Numbered from the stretch's first letter, positions 15,824-28,451 are shown. The stretch: 28,451 nucleotides of DNA from Candidatus Nanopelagicales bacterium (GCA_044341115.1 JBIISH010000001.1:1-28451); one strand, 5' to 3'. A program made the numbers and translations. The notes: generated by a model not told the origin, from the letters alone.

Positions 15824-17127
15824 GAGAGTTGCGTGCGTCCTTGCATGTAGGGGCGAAGGGCGGCGGGAATCGTGACGCTGCCGTCAGCCTGTTGATGATT
15901 TTCAAGAATTGCGACGATGACCCGAGGCATCGCGCACAACGTGCCATTCAGGGTTGCTAGCGGCTTGGTGGTCTCACCATCGCGCATGCGGATGCGCAAC
16001 CTGCGGGCTTGGAACTCGTTGGTGTTGGAAGTACTTGTCACTTCGCGGTAAGCATCTTGGGTAGGAATCCACGCCTCGATGTCGAACTTGCGTGACGCGC
16101 TCGAGCCCAGATCGCCAGTAGCAACGTCGATCACCCGGTAAGGAAGTTCGAGAGCATCCAGGAACTCCTTCTCCCACGCAACCATGTTTGCGTGCTCGGC
16201 CTCGGCGTTCGCCGGATCGCAGAACACAAACATCTCGACTTTGTCGAACTGGTGAACCCGGATGATCCCGCGGGTGTCTTTGCCGTATGAGCCGGCCTCG
16301 CGGCGGAAGCAACTCGACCAGCCGGCGTATCTCTTCGGTAAATCAGCTGCGTCGATGATTTCATCTGAATGGAAAGCGGCGAGTGGAACTTCGCTGGTGC
16401 CCACCAGGTACAAATCGTCGGACTCAACGCGATACACGTTCTCCGCGGCCTGGCCAAGGAATCCGGTGCCCTCCATCGCGGTGGGCAGCACCAGCGCCGG
16501 CGTGATCATCGGGATGAGACCGTGCTGGCGCGCGTGATCCATCGCAAGGTTCAACAATGCAAACTCAAGTTCAGCGCCCGGCCCGGTCAAGTAGTAAAAA
16601 CGCGAACCGGAAACTTTCGCGCCACGCTCAACATCGATTGCGGAGAGTGCTTCACCGATTTCCAGGTGATCCTTCGGTACGAAACCTTCGGCTGCGAAAT
16701 CGCGTGGCACACCCACATGCTCGATGATCGTGAAGTCGGCTTCACCACCAACAGGTGAATCCAGGTTGACCAGATTCGAAATTTGTAGCCAGAGACCTTC
16801 AGCCTCGGCAGCAGCATCGGCGCTGGCAAGTTCAGCGGCCTTTGTTTCCTCAGCCAGCGTCTGCGCCTTGGCCATCAGCCCATCGAGTTGCGCCTGCAGC
16901 TCTGGCTTGGCAGCGTCGTCGGCCTTCTTGAGTTGGCCCTGCAACGGACCGATGTCCTTGCCGATCAACTTCTGCTGGTTACGTAGTTCGTCAAAGCTCT
17001 GCCGAGCGGTACGCATCCTCTGATCAGCGGCGATCAGGGAATCAACGATGCTCACATCCTCGCCGCGGCGACGTTGGGACTCGCGAATGCGGTCAGGGTC
17101 GGTGCGCAAGATGGCGGGATCAATCAC
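15820..17127 (-). CDS. serS: Serine--tRNA ligase
   Basis: N-terminal coiled coil, [49 protein letters not shown] and EVTSTSN motifs. TAAACT lies 6 nt before GTG 17127 (alternative start 17130). Confidence 0.98.
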
Positions 17128-17394
17128 CACTGAAGTTTAGTCGCCTCAACATTTAGAGGTAATGGCCGAGATTGCGGTCTCCAGATCTATCTTCATCTAG
17201 GACAACCACAGACTGGACAGCCTCCTTGATCTCGTCGTTTTAATCCTCAGACATAGCCCCAGTATCCCACTGATTCTGCTGGGACTCGAGGAAAAAGGGA
17301 GGGGGCTGTTGCCTAGTGGGGTTCGTGTGGCACACTTTGCGGACTTTGCTCGATTCCCCGGGGCGGAAGTGCCGGGGCGTGAAAGGCGGTTTGA

Positions 17395-17898
17395 TTGGAC
17401 TACAACTGGCTCACCCCCAAGGCGCAGGCGCGCCCCGCCGGGGATAAGGGTTGGGGCTCCTTTGTCATTGAACCCATTCGCAAGGGTGAGACAGTCGCGG
17501 CTTTCGGTGGTTGGGTGGTGACCCGCGAGGTCCTGTCCGGCATGAACCACGACCGCCAATCACGATCGATCCAAGTAGATGAAGACCTGTATCTCGTTTC
17601 TTCAGACACTCCCGAGCCGGGCGACATGCTCAACCATGCATGCGACCCGAACTGCGGAATGGCCGGATCGTCCATGCTGATCGCGATGCGTGACATCGAA
17701 CCAGGTGAAGAACTCACCTTCGACTACGCGATGTGTGATGCCTCCGACTACGACGAGTTCAGTTGCCTGTGCACAATGCCGGGCTGCCGCGGGGTCGTCA
17801 CTGGTGCGGACTGGCGGGATCCGGTGCTGCAGGCAAAGTACATGGGCTTCCACTCGCCGTACCTGCTCAAGCGGATCGCAGCACTGCACACCGCGTAG
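17395..17898 (+). CDS. SET-domain protein with post-SET cysteines (putative protein-lysine methyltransferase)
   Basis: KGWGSF, MLNHACDPNC, IEPGEELTFDY and post-SET CLCTMPGCRG motifs. TTG start with GAAAGG upstream; the exact start is uncertain. Confidence 0.88.
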   Translation: MDYNWLTPKAQARPAGDKGWGSFVIEPIRKGETVAAFGGWVVTREVLSGMNHDRQSRSIQVDEDLYLVSSDTPEPGDMLNHACDPNCGMAGSSMLIAMRDIEPGEELTFDYAMCDASDYDEFSCLCTMPGCRGVVTGADWRDPVLQAKYMGFHSPYLLKRIAALHTA

Positions 17899-17910
17899 CG
17901 CCACCCCCCG

Positions 17911-17985
17911 GCGATTTCACCCGGGTCCCGGGTCAATTCACCAAAGTGGGGTGTTTGAAGGCCTCCGAATGGCGATTTCACCCGG
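17911..17985 (+). repeat. Left three-box repeat arm (REP-doublet/terminal-repeat-like)
   Basis: gcgatttcacccg-ggt-cccgggtcaattcacca-27 nt-ggcgatttcacccgg. It is the mirror image of 18660-18733. Confidence 0.85.
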
Positions 17986-18020
17986 TCGGTTCTTGATTCC
18001 CGGTTTAGTCCCCTGAATGC

Positions 18021-18055
18021 TTGTATCGCGTATCGATACACGATACAGTGGCAAC
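18021..18055 (+). promoter_or_regulatory. higBA promoter with an overlapping palindromic operator
   Basis: TTGTAT (18021-18026), 17 bp, TACAGT (18044-18049), 6 nt, ATG 18056. A 26-bp near-perfect palindrome tgtatcgcgtatcgatacacgataca spans 18022-18047. Confidence 0.75.
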
Positions 18056-18334
18056 ATGATTGTGGGCTTTCGTCACAAAGGCTTGCGGGCTTTGTATGAA
18101 AAAGACTCAATCCGAGGAGTTCAAGCTGATCAAGCGGCCAAGCTTCGTCGAATCCTGACTGCTCTCGACGCTGCCAACAACCCAGGTGATCTTGAAATAC
18201 CTGGATTTCGTTTGCACTCGCTGTCAGGAAAACTGAATGATCACTGGTCGATTTGGGTGAACGGGAACTGGCGAGTCACATTTCGATTCATCGAAAGCGA
18301 CGTGGAACTTGTCGACTACCAGGACTACCACTAG
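18056..18334 (+). CDS. higB: HigB toxin (RelE superfamily, Rts1 killer-protein type), 92 aa
   Basis: MIVGFRHKGLRALYE...PGFRLHSLSGKLNDHWSIWVNGNWRVTFRF...VDYQDYH. The toxin gene lies upstream of an HTH antitoxin. Confidence 0.93.
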   Translation: MIVGFRHKGLRALYEKDSIRGVQADQAAKLRRILTALDAANNPGDLEIPGFRLHSLSGKLNDHWSIWVNGNWRVTFRFIESDVELVDYQDYH

Positions 18335-18348
18335 GGAGTGTGAGTGAC

Positions 18349-18654
18349 ATGAAGAATCCTGTACATCCGGGAGCAATACTTCGCGAGGATGTTCTTGCTG
18401 AACTCGGAATGTCCGTTGGTGAGGCTGCCGAGCGACTCGGAATCTCACGGGTAACGCTCAGCCGTGTCATCCATGAGCATGCCCGAATCTCACCGAATCT
18501 TGCGCTTCGCCTAGAAGCCGCTGGGGTCGGAACTGCGCGTGTGTGGCTAGCAATGCAAACTGCAAGAGATTTGGCAGATGAACGCGCCGCAGGAACACCG
18601 AAAGTACGCAAGCTCGTATCAATCGGCACATCCGCGCGAGCACTCAGCGTCTAA
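18349..18654 (+). CDS. higA: HigA antitoxin (HTH-XRE), 101 aa
   Basis: MKNPVHPGAILREDVL..LGMSVGEAAERLGISRVTLSRVI..HARISPNLALRL...WLAMQ. GGGAG SD upstream. Confidence 0.93.
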   Translation: MKNPVHPGAILREDVLAELGMSVGEAAERLGISRVTLSRVIHEHARISPNLALRLEAAGVGTARVWLAMQTARDLADERAAGTPKVRKLVSIGTSARALSV

Positions 18655-18659
18655 AGCAC

Positions 18660-18733
18660 CCGGGTGAAATCGCCAGAACTGCCCGGAATCGGGCTGGAAA
18701 TGGTGAATTCACCCGGGAAACGGGCGAAATCGC
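18660..18733 (-). repeat. Right three-box repeat arm, inverted relative to 17911-17985
   Basis: The reverse complement reads gcgatttcgcccg-ttt-cccgggtgaattcacca-26 nt-ggcgatttcacccgg. The boxes match the left arm at 12/13, 16/17 and 15/15. Confidence 0.85.
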
Positions 18734-18757
18734 AAGGGTGTGGGGGCGGGTTAGGGG

Positions 18758-19738
18758 TTAGGGCGCCTGCAGCACGATCTTGCCGGTGACCGGACCATCT
18801 TGCAGTAGGCGATGCGCATCAGCTGCATCCTGCATCGGCATCACCCGATCGATGACCGGCTTAACCACACCGGATTCGATCCACGGCCACACCACCTTCT
18901 CCACCTCGCGGCAGATAGCGGCCTTCTCGGTGTCTGGGCGAGCCCGCATGCTGGTGGCTGCGAACGTGCCGTTCTTGCGCAGCAGCGTCGCAATATCAAA
19001 CTCGGCCTTGGTGCCACCTTGCATGCCGATGGTCACGATGCGTCCGTTGCGATTGAGAGCGTCGACGTTGCGCATCAAGTAGGAGGCGCCCATGTTGTCC
19101 AGGATTACGTCGGCGCCGCGGCCCGCTGTCTGGTCCTTGATGGCTTCCACGAAGTCTTCGTCGTTGTAGTTAATCAAGATCTCCGCACCGAGTGCAGAGC
19201 ACGCGTTGAGCTTTGCTTGGGAACCAGCGGTAACGGCAACGCGAACACCCAGCGCGCGAGCAATCTGAATCGCCATGGTGCCGATGCCAGAACCGCCGCC
19301 GTGGATCAACAGGGTTTCACCCTCTTTGATGCGCGCGACCTTGGACAGGTTTACCCAGACGGTGCAGGCGGCCTCGGGAAGGCCGGCGGCATCGATGAGT
19401 GAAACGCCTTCGGGAACAGACATGAGTTGGCCCACAGGAACGGCAACCTTGGTGGCGTAACCGCCGCCGGCAAGAAGGGCCGTGACTTTCTCGCCGATGC
19501 GATCAAGGGTGAGGGCGGCGCCAACGGCGGCGATCGCGCCGGAGCACTCGAGGCCGAGGATGTCTGAGGATCCGGGGGGCGGTGGGTAGTTGCCTTCGCG
19601 CTGCAACAGATCAGCACGGTTAACGGCGGAGGCGGCGACCTCGATGATTACTTCACCTGGTCTGGGTGTGGGGTCGGGGACTTTCTGCCACTCGAGGACT
19701 TCGGGGCCGCCATCGCGGGATTGGACGATTGCATACAT
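18758..19738 (-). CDS. NAD(P)H-quinone oxidoreductase, PIG3/zeta-crystallin (MDR) family
   Basis: AVNRADLLQREGNYPPPPG..DILGLECSG, LLAGGGYA, LPEAACTVW, LIHGGGSGIGTMAIQ and VILDNMGASYL motifs. Confidence 0.93.
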   Translation of the reverse strand: MYAIVQSRDGGPEVLEWQKVPDPTPRPGEVIIEVAASAVNRADLLQREGNYPPPPGSSDILGLECSGAIAAVGAALTLDRIGEKVTALLAGGGYATKVAVPVGQLMSVPEGVSLIDAAGLPEAACTVWVNLSKVARIKEGETLLIHGGGSGIGTMAIQIARALGVRVAVTAGSQAKLNACSALGAEILINYNDEDFVEAIKDQTAGRGADVILDNMGASYLMRNVDALNRNGRIVTIGMQGGTKAEFDIATLLRKNGTFAATSMRARPDTEKAAICREVEKVVWPWIESGVVKPVIDRVMPMQDAADAHRLLQDGPVTGKIVLQAP

Positions 19739-27190: not shown

Positions 27191-27673
27191 ATGCAGATAC
27201 TGGACATCGTCCGGTTGATCGTCATCGACATCGTGGTGGTTGCCGGAATCTCGATAGGTGCTGGCTTCACCGCACCCCGATGGCCCAGCTCATGGCTTCA
27301 GGTCATCCCGCGACCCCTCTACCAATTCCCGTGGGAGAGCCCGGCCTACTTTCGCCGCGTCAAGGCTGCGTGGTGGGCGAACCGGTTGCCCGAATTGGGC
27401 GCCACCTTCGGCGGAGAGTCGAAGAACAACACTCCTGATCGCGGTACCGAGCAGATCCAGCACTACCTCGTTGAACTGCGCCGGGCCGAATGGGTGCACT
27501 GGATCTCGATGGTCACCTGGGTGCCACTCGCCTTCTTCAACCCGTGGTGGCTCACCCTGCCGTTTGCGATCATCGTGATGTCTGGCAACTCGTTGTACCT
27601 TCTCATCTTGCGCAACAATCGACAGCGCTTAGAGCGCATCTTGCAACGAATGACTAAAGGAGAATCGACGTGA
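27191..27673 (+). CDS. CrtO-like (glycosyl-4,4'-diaponeurosporenoate acyltransferase family) membrane protein
   Basis: PWES..YFRRVK..WWANRLPELG and YLVELRRAEWVHW, plus the C-terminal RNNRQRL, resemble the CrtO family. AGGAGG SD upstream. Confidence 0.7.
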   Translation: MQILDIVRLIVIDIVVVAGISIGAGFTAPRWPSSWLQVIPRPLYQFPWESPAYFRRVKAAWWANRLPELGATFGGESKNNTPDRGTEQIQHYLVELRRAEWVHWISMVTWVPLAFFNPWWLTLPFAIIVMSGNSLYLLILRNNRQRLERILQRMTKGEST

Positions 27674-28451
27674 GCGTGGACTACGGAGTGACCTCGATGG
27701 TGGCACCGCTCAAGCGGGTTGCTGTGCGACCACCTTCACGCCGCGGTGATTACTCGAAGGCACATTGGGCGCAGCCACTCGATCTGGATCTACTCGCTAC
27801 TCAACACGCGGACTTCGTTGCGCTGTTAACGTCATTGGGTGTTGGCGTCGAAATTCTTAATCCGGTTGATGACATGCCCGACGCGATCTTTACCTACGAC
27901 CCTGCATTCGTGGTGCCCTCGGGCGTGATCGAGTTCCAAGGAGCAAAGGAAGTGCGCGCGGGAGAACCACCACTCTTGGCCGCTGAGCTCGAAGGATTGG
28001 GTGTTCCGCGCGTTGGCCGGTTGACCGGTGCTGCCACAGCAGATGGCGGCGACATGTTCTGGCTCGATAACACCACCCTTGCAATCGGTCGCTCGTACCG
28101 AACAAATCAAGTGGCTGTTGATCAGATTCGCGCGATGGTGGAACCTGATGGCATCAACGTTGAAGTGTTTGACCTGCCGCACGATCAAGGACCCGAGTAC
28201 TGCCTGCACTTGATGTCGGTGGTCTCGCCCATCCGCGATGACCTGGCTGTGGTGTTTGAGCGATTGGCCCCGGTTGCTTTGTTGCAGGCGCTTGCCGTGC
28301 GCGGAATTGAAACGATCTCAGTGCCCGATGAGGACTACGAGTCCTTGGGCTGCAATGTGTTGACCGTTGCACCAGGAGTGGTGGTGATCGCTGAAGGAAA
28401 TGAGGCTACCGCAACGCTGCTCCGCAACCACGGGGTCACGGTGCACACCTA
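27670..28451 (+). CDS. Amidinotransferase/DDAH/arginine deiminase-superfamily enzyme, 3' end outside the window (not in the ORF track)
   Basis: Translated by hand from GTG 27670 (GTGA overlap): MSVDYGVTSMVAPLKRVAV...PDAIFTYDP...ADGGDMFWL...GRSYRTN...CLHLMS...LGCNVL. Open to the window end. Confidence 0.85.
   Translation, partial: MSVDYGVTSMVAPLKRVAVRPPSRRGDYSKAHWAQPLDLDLLATQHADFVALLTSLGVGVEILNPVDDMPDAIFTYDPAFVVPSGVIEFQGAKEVRAGEPPLLAAELEGLGVPRVGRLTGAATADGGDMFWLDNTTLAIGRSYRTNQVAVDQIRAMVEPDGINVEVFDLPHDQGPEYCLHLMSVVSPIRDDLAVVFERLAPVALLQALAVRGIETISVPDEDYESLGCNVLTVAPGVVVIAEGNEATATLLRNHGVTVHT

Follow-up and report, generated by a model that had tools for sequence, protein, structure and literature searches.

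The DNA analyzed here, referred to as the window, is a stretch of 28,451 nucleotides (GCA_044341115.1 JBIISH010000001.1:1-28451) from genome G000, a freshwater Nanopelagicales MAG of 1.87 Mb that is 76% complete and distributed over 307 contigs. The locus of interest lies between a SET-domain gene and a quinone-oxidoreductase-like gene, and its features, with coordinates counted from the first letter of the window, are the following.

17395..17898, plus strand: SET-domain gene (Pfam SET, E 5e-12), whose stop codon adjoins the C-rich flank of the left arm
17899..17909, plus strand: C-rich outer flank of the left arm, running up to the SET stop (17898)
17910-17985, plus strand: left arm, consisting of box1, 3 nt, inverted box2, a 27-nt spacer and box3
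17910-17924 (+), 17928-17942 (-) and 17971-17985 (+): box1, box2 and box3 of the left arm, from motif and inverted-repeat searches
18022..18047, plus strand: 26-nt palindrome upstream of higB (inverted repeat, 13+13 nt at 92%)
18056..18334, plus strand: higB toxin gene, 92 aa (Pfam HigB-like_toxin PF05015, E 5e-23)
18349..18654, plus strand: higA antitoxin gene, 101 aa (HTH_3 PF01381, E 8e-7)
18660-18734, minus strand: right arm, the mirror image of the left, with a small hairpin in its spacer
18660-18674 (-), 18702-18716 (+) and 18720-18734 (-): box3, box2 and box1 of the right arm
18735..18757, minus strand: C-rich outer flank of the right arm, G-rich on the plus strand and extending to the qor stop (18758)
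18758..19738, minus strand: quinone-oxidoreductase-like gene (qor; Pfam ADH_zinc_N and ADH_N), convergent with SET

The interval between the SET and qor stop codons consists of two arms and higBA and nothing else, and open reading frames and Pfam matches bear out the description in the initial annotation of a promoter region, higB and higA as the sole cargo. The module has the layout of a type II higBA system, with the HigB gene upstream of the HTH HigA gene and a gap of 14 nt between them, and the higA stop codon is separated from box3 of the right arm by 5 nt. The 26-nt palindrome, which is retained in every allele with an intact higB, is probably the operator/promoter region of higBA, in which it would act as the operator. 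Judged from its GC content of 0.50-0.56 (0.495 for higB) versus 0.61-0.62 in the adjacent genes, higBA is a compositionally foreign module.

The six boxes that the initial annotation had placed in the arms were confirmed at those positions by inverted-repeat and motif searches, and its account of mirror-image, three-box arms holds. The 15-mer GGCGATTTCACCCGG, allowing up to 3 mismatches, has 8 matches in the window versus 1.49 expected, a number reached in 0 of 100 shuffles, and 6 of the 8 fall inside the two arms. Inverted-repeat pairs of 43 nt at 84% identity and of 17 and 16 nt at 100% connect the arms, which match the model of the repeat family described below with 75.5 bits (left, E 3e-21) and 71.5 bits (right, E 6e-20). 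Including its C-rich flank an arm measures ∼88 nt, with 15-nt boxes in the order + - + around a free spacer. As had been claimed, the spacers of 26-27 nt are unrelated between left and right, and a hairpin is present in the right arm, pairing 18659-18675 with 18701-18717 around GCCCG-GAAT-CGGGC. Likewise in agreement with the earlier description, no transposase was found within the window and no target-site duplication was seen at the arms. The C-rich flank of the right arm differs in length among alleles, and nearly all of the 14 repeat copies in the genome have a C-run ahead of box1; the C-run persists in alleles without boxes and is missing at the empty junctions of other genera.

The arms are members of a dispersed repeat family. 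Fourteen full copies are present on 10 contigs of G000, two of them being the higBA arms, and G001 and G002, the two other genomes of the same genus used for comparison, hold 12 and 14 copies, almost all at loci orthologous to those of G000. Some copies and partner arms in G000 were probably missed, because the assembly is incomplete and fragmented. Eleven of the 14 copies lie directly 3' of the stop codon of a core gene, in sense orientation and with the C-run facing the gene, and the remaining 3 run in the opposite direction or lie upstream of genes; the genes preceding copies include groEL, SET, qor, and the genes for glutamine synthetase, a class I aminoacyl-tRNA synthetase, an aminotransferase, a DUF3145 protein and a carboxyltransferase. 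In an alignment of the 14 copies the boxes are near-invariant and the spacers cannot be aligned.

Copies of the repeat pair far more often than random placement predicts. Four convergent arm pairs no more than 2.5 kb apart were found, compared with 0.24 expected (Poisson P about 1e-4), which upholds the suggestion that the inverted pair is a real unit. In all four the C-runs point outward and box3 inward, divergent or tandem pairs number zero, and the pairs lie mostly at convergent gene junctions with their outer ends against both stop codons. Of these pairs two are empty, higBA occupies the third and a nuclease gene the fourth. One empty doublet lies between clpX and the class I aminoacyl-tRNA synthetase gene on contig C170 and in the orthologous position in G001, with 37-43 nt between the arms; the second lies just past the right end of the window's contig and is visible in G001 (C83:11258-11484). 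The centers of the doublets are not conserved. A fifth apparent pair, on contig C133, encloses an MDMPI-family gene and rplJ-rplL and ends upstream of rpoB; it probably represents two unrelated copies. Because arm pairs can also have ordinary genes between them, for example rplJ-rplL in G000 and purE in genome G069 of another genus, some pairs may be chance neighbors. The reverse-oriented copy between rplL and rpoB (G000:C133:9223-9334) has a partly duplicated box1 and is conserved in all three species.

The contig of the window (right end about 27214-28451) ends just before the doublet present in G001, and several other contigs also terminate at or near copies, indicating that the repeats break the assembly. 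At this doublet G002 (C302) has the forward copy and a remnant of the reverse copy. An insertion with target duplication as the origin of the extra reverse copy in G001 was considered and rejected. The edges carry a direct repeat, CGCGG(C/T)GA, matching at 7 of 8 positions, and the C-run and the first bases of box1 are left in G002, so that the difference between the two genomes is attributed to a deletion at microhomology.

Orthologous copies diverge by 0.033-0.038 per site in boxes 2 and 3, about half the value of 0.073 in the spacer, a comparison that is suggestive only since orthologues are not independent. For the box1:box2 and box2:box3 stems of the 14 copies, neither pairing nor covariation exceeds that of shuffled controls. 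Predicted folds of the copies are moderately stable, with folding energies that do not clearly favor either strand; a U-tail is not consistently present, and an Rfam scan of positions 17000-19500 returned no family and only two sub-threshold chance matches. A GC-rich hairpin followed by a T-run occurs within the spacer of a minority of copies, for example the forward copy on C170, and both higBA arms lack the hairpin and U-run signature of an intrinsic terminator. Box conservation, together with the lack of covariation, strand preference, U-tail and Rfam match, points to boxes that are more likely bound by a protein than formed into an RNA structure, in support of the earlier proposal of protein-recognized ends; protein binding is a prediction from these sequence patterns.

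The gene order serS-SET-qor-ktr is kept across the order, as seen in about 100 loci of other genera, and in many relatives the gap between SET and qor is 11 nt, with no boxes, C-runs or higBA, indicating that everything between the two stop codons was inserted in the present genus. Across the order the gap ranges from 11 nt to 3.7 kb. In many other genera unrelated genes take up 0.9-3.7 kb there, their products measuring 287, 339, about 410-450 and 567 aa, and from these comparisons the junction appears to tolerate insertions regardless of repeats. In another genus a 63-nt gap contains CCCGGGTCAA twice; the resemblance of this sequence to box2 may be fortuitous or may reflect the remains of a related repeat.

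Within the genus each of the three species has the arm-higBA-arm locus only once, at one shared position. G001 (C33) and G002 (C289) share a deletion of ∼180 bp (about 18028-18207) with a 2-nt TC microhomology at its ends; it takes away HigB residues 1-50 together with some of the palindrome, so that an intact orphan higA remains between both arms. An exact HigB look-up recovered 10 metagenome contigs, in every one of which HigB lies between SET and qor. The right arm is present in all 8 of these alleles that extend far enough, and among the 9 contigs informative for the left arm one has the arm as in the window and eight have a 45-nt stub in its place; one lake run also yielded the stub allele, as a contig joint from 17897 to 18021 with 45 letters between. 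The stub is interpreted as a deleted left arm, since it retains the C-run along with short segments similar to box1, to box2 and to the beginning of the spacer. Exact look-ups with SET and HigA gave two further contigs, at least one with the left arm. No allele free of higBA or with alternative cargo was found among the three species and the metagenome contigs; a search for such alleles had been suggested as a test of mobility. A metagenome scan with the SET protein returned no genus-level alleles, the best match being 84% identical, and the contigs recovered lack boxes and higBA.

Across the metagenome contigs higBA is 99-100% identical, SET 94-99% and qor about 92%, so that the flanks differ by 1-9%. 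These mosaic flanks suggest, as far as sequence comparison can indicate, that the module spread recently between lineages by recombination; the identity of higBA fits homologous recombination via the flanks, for which the arms are not required. The arrangement itself is old, predating the three species, and is inherited vertically and eroding.

The arm pair on contig C28, at the junction of the DUF3145 gene and the carboxyltransferase gene, encloses a single-copy gene on the minus strand encoding a protein of 336-406 aa. In most other genera of the family that were checked these two genes are 2-80 nt apart, indicating that arm, nuclease gene and arm together are an insertion specific to this genus. 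The protein matches Pfam DUF559 (PF04480) at 24.9 bits, compared with a cut-off of 20.6, and AbiEi_4 weakly; its homologue in G072, a genome of another genus (g6), matches AbiEi_4 at E 2e-10. A structure model of the C28 protein (pLDDT 85, pTM 0.82) was compared with known structures by Foldseek. The N-terminal two-thirds match the AbiEi antitoxin of S. agalactiae (6y8q, probability 1.00), and the C-terminal ∼100 residues match the catalytic domain of the homing endonuclease I-Bth0305I (3r3p, 0.99), Vsr (1cw0, 0.97) and a DUF559 structure (3hrl), these three matches spanning probabilities of 0.96-0.99. Residues D262, E273, D275 and K279 in the C-terminal domain are invariant in 8 homologues. 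A profile search of the nuclease family against PDB sequences gave nothing useful. The modeled fold and the invariant residues identify the protein as an AbiEi-like winged-helix domain fused to a predicted Vsr-like PD-(D/E)XK nuclease.

Homologues of this nuclease with 40-47% identity are found in G072 and in G069 and G016 (both genus g15), each between inverted arms of ∼87 nt that have the same arrangement of C-run, box, 3 nt, inverted box, spacer and box and a box sequence that is lineage-specific. Left and right arms in these genomes are about 90-95% identical, with exact inverted matches of up to 35 nt. Three genera thus have the nuclease gene between arms, and the boxes differ from genus to genus. 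G072 contains 63 matches to its own arm motif, most of them in convergent doublets 146-216 nt apart. A compact palindromic form of its repeat, with two motif matches spaced by 56 nt, occurs at about ten loci, among them C2:15137-15214 and C12:22761-22838. On C18 and C19 the same genome carries more distant nuclease paralogues, whose flanking inverted repeats (16-24 nt exact) are quite unlike the arms in sequence; a separate repeat family may exist for each paralogue. In a repeat variant of another genus, a 15-bp stem precedes TTTTT.

On the basis of its co-location with the repeats and of boxes that change with the lineage, the C28 nuclease is likely to be their partner enzyme; we infer that it would bind the boxes and spread the doublets. 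The loci are static across the three species and their presence/absence differences look like deletions only, so that any current mobility would be speculative. The initial annotation had envisaged an enzyme acting in trans, and a candidate does exist, although it is an AbiEi-like/DUF559 nuclease rather than a RAYT, HUH or DDE enzyme. A search for the RAYT/Y1 transposase family PF01797 was negative in G000, G001 and G002 (76-93% complete), whereas the same search matched 6 of 14 control genomes. In the literature searched, no description was found of Nanopelagicales repeats or of DUF559 proteins in connection with mobile elements.

The reading that we favor, with somewhat better than even confidence, is that the arms are a doublet of the cognate repeats of the C28 nuclease and that higBA is a passenger held inside it. 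What the data show directly is the dispersed repeat, the convergent pairing of its copies, their association with the nuclease gene, and a locus that is fixed in place and decaying. In the most likely history, a doublet would have come to occupy the SET-qor junction in the ancestor of the genus, and foreign higBA would then have been captured inside the resident doublet; less likely, higBA arrived between the arms by arm-to-arm recombination. Vertical inheritance would have followed, during which the left arm was reduced to the 45-nt stub in most environmental alleles and the promoter and first half of higB were deleted in two sister species.

The initial annotation had proposed instead a mobile higBA cassette. 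With the nuclease as the enzyme, arm-higBA-arm would be, or would once have been, a non-autonomous unit mobilized in trans, or it would be swapped into resident doublets by arm-to-arm recombination. An arm, a foreign gene (higBA or the nuclease gene) and a second arm occupy each of two junctions that are tight in other genera; empty doublets exist; arm pairs in G072 and G069 enclose other small genes, namely PfkB, HEAT-repeat, DUF4440 and GtrA-plus-PurE genes; and the near-identity of higBA between flanking genes that are only 91-99% identical would fit recent recombinational spread. The catalog of arm-pair contents, which the annotation had called for, does therefore include empty pairs and pairs with other contents, but it reveals no toxin-antitoxin pattern, and some of the contents in G072 and G069 are housekeeping genes. 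The module is moreover confined to one copy at one locus in three species, no higBA-free or alternative-cargo allele was found in the genus, and 8 of 9 contigs encode the identical HigB at this locus but lack the left arm. Elsewhere in the order, the 19 nearest higBA homologues (HigB 67-81% identical; higBA homologues were found in 58 of 390 genomes) have no match to the family model and no flanking inverted repeat of at least 11 nt apart from one 12-nt match. One read joint, from 17945 to 18700 (run X2), was considered as an excision joining the arms into a compact hairpin and rejected; it is not counted because its 34-nt side lies in repeat sequence, so that this sole arm-to-arm joint is indistinguishable from, and most likely is, another repeat copy. 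The annotation had itself named two observations that would speak against a cassette, and both are largely what was found: the motif is a dispersed repeat placed independently of cargo, with 14 copies mostly after core genes, and higBA occurs at the locus without its left arm, the right arm being kept. With no second copy, no higBA-free allele and homologues that lack arms, there is no evidence that higBA moves as a cassette, and we regard this reading as quite improbable.

Enclosure might also be incidental, higBA having entered the SET-qor junction alone and single arms having been inserted later behind each stop codon. Many other genera accept 0.9-3.7 kb of unrelated genes at this junction with no arms, single arms stand behind many genes, and most environmental alleles consist of higBA and a right arm only. 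Convergent pairing far above chance is nevertheless difficult to reconcile with independent events, the stub resembles a deleted arm rather than a site that was never occupied, and the left arm is present in both of the more distant congeners; such a history is unlikely. The arms could alternatively be terminators, mRNA stabilizers or insulators of SET and qor that were never selfish or mobile. The position of 11 of the 14 copies just 3' of a stop codon in sense orientation would be expected of such elements, as would the moderately stable predicted folds and the spacers that contain a GC-rich hairpin and T-run (the forward copy on C170 and the 15-bp stem with TTTTT in another genus). This function is, however, very improbable given the inconsistent U-tail, folding energies that show no strand preference, the lack of covariation in either stem and of an Rfam match, and the 3 copies that are reversed or upstream of genes, and it leaves unexplained the pairing around the nuclease gene and the lineage-specific boxes.

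The favored reading, a passenger within a doublet of nuclease-associated repeats, could be extended to an active process in which the nuclease would cut doublets, repair of the break would capture foreign DNA, and filled doublets would later be exchanged via recombination between arms. We consider this extension a long shot. If it were true, doublets would be landing pads for accessory modules (higBA here; PfkB, DUF4440 and HEAT-repeat genes in a sister genus), and the gene-capture system would combine a REP-like repeat with a nuclease that is related to no known transposase or integrase.

The system described here has its closest general counterpart in the REPtrons, in which REP/REPIN repeats are associated with RAYTs, that is, Y1 HUH transposases (PMC3116915, PMC3337134, PMC5581495). 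Shared features are short, structured extragenic repeats scattered within one genome and found for the most part in inverted doublets, an enzyme gene in single copy that lies between its cognate repeats, repeat sequences that are lineage-specific, long vertical inheritance, and copy numbers from about a dozen to several dozen. The enzyme here is AbiEi-like with a DUF559 PD-(D/E)XK domain and not a Y1 transposase, the arms are ∼88 nt long with three boxes and a free spacer in place of a 20-40-nt palindrome, the C-rich outer flanks are pressed to stop codons, and transposition is only conjectural. Because a nuclease gene lies between its own repeats and no Y1/RAYT gene was found, the layout is described as of the REP/REPIN-RAYT type with an unrelated enzyme.

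The N-terminal two-thirds of the nuclease share the AbiEi fold (Pfam AbiEi_4) with AbiEi of the type IV AbiE systems. AbiEi binds paired inverted repeats in its own promoter, and these resemble the layout of box1, 3 nt and box2 in the arms. Unlike AbiEi, the C28 protein has no AbiEii partner and carries a C-terminal nuclease fold, and its sites are at more than 10 loci versus one operator.

The closest known parallel to the cassette proposed in the initial annotation is the pdif module of Acinetobacter plasmids, in which small cargo, often higBA, brnTA or relBE, lies between inverted protein-recognized sites and is thought to be shuffled by a trans-acting enzyme (PMC7885321). The pdif sites are 28-bp XerC/XerD sites on plasmids, with 11-bp XerC and XerD arms and a 6-bp spacer, and identical modules occur in different contexts, whereas the sites here are chromosomal and unrelated, with 15-nt boxes and no dif-like half-sites, and the module is single-copy and fixed, with one arm dispensable. 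MITEs and MITE-bounded composite elements, for example the Tn3-derived TIMEs (PMC4133298), also have inverted terminal sequences with no transposase between them and sometimes captured DNA inside. In contrast to such elements, no target-site duplication was identified here, no known DDE transposase has matching ends, and the pairs are stable across species; the single locus and the lack of an empty allele likewise differ from a composite or non-autonomous transposon. Nor do the arms resemble integron attC sites, since they are inverted rather than direct, and copies are single or convergent behind core genes on 10 contigs.

The locus indicates that a gene between mirror-image repeats is not thereby a mobile cassette, and the partnership of repeat and nuclease is a more interesting object than a higBA cassette. 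The alleles form a natural decay series, from intact higBA with two arms, through intact higBA with one arm, to an orphan higA after the ∼180-bp deletion. Foreign toxin-antitoxin genes can be lodged within a doublet of such repeats, which makes gene capture by doublets testable. If the link between nuclease and boxes holds, small-genome freshwater actinobacteria would carry a REP/REPIN-like partnership whose enzyme joins an AbiEi-type DNA-binding domain to a Vsr-like nuclease.
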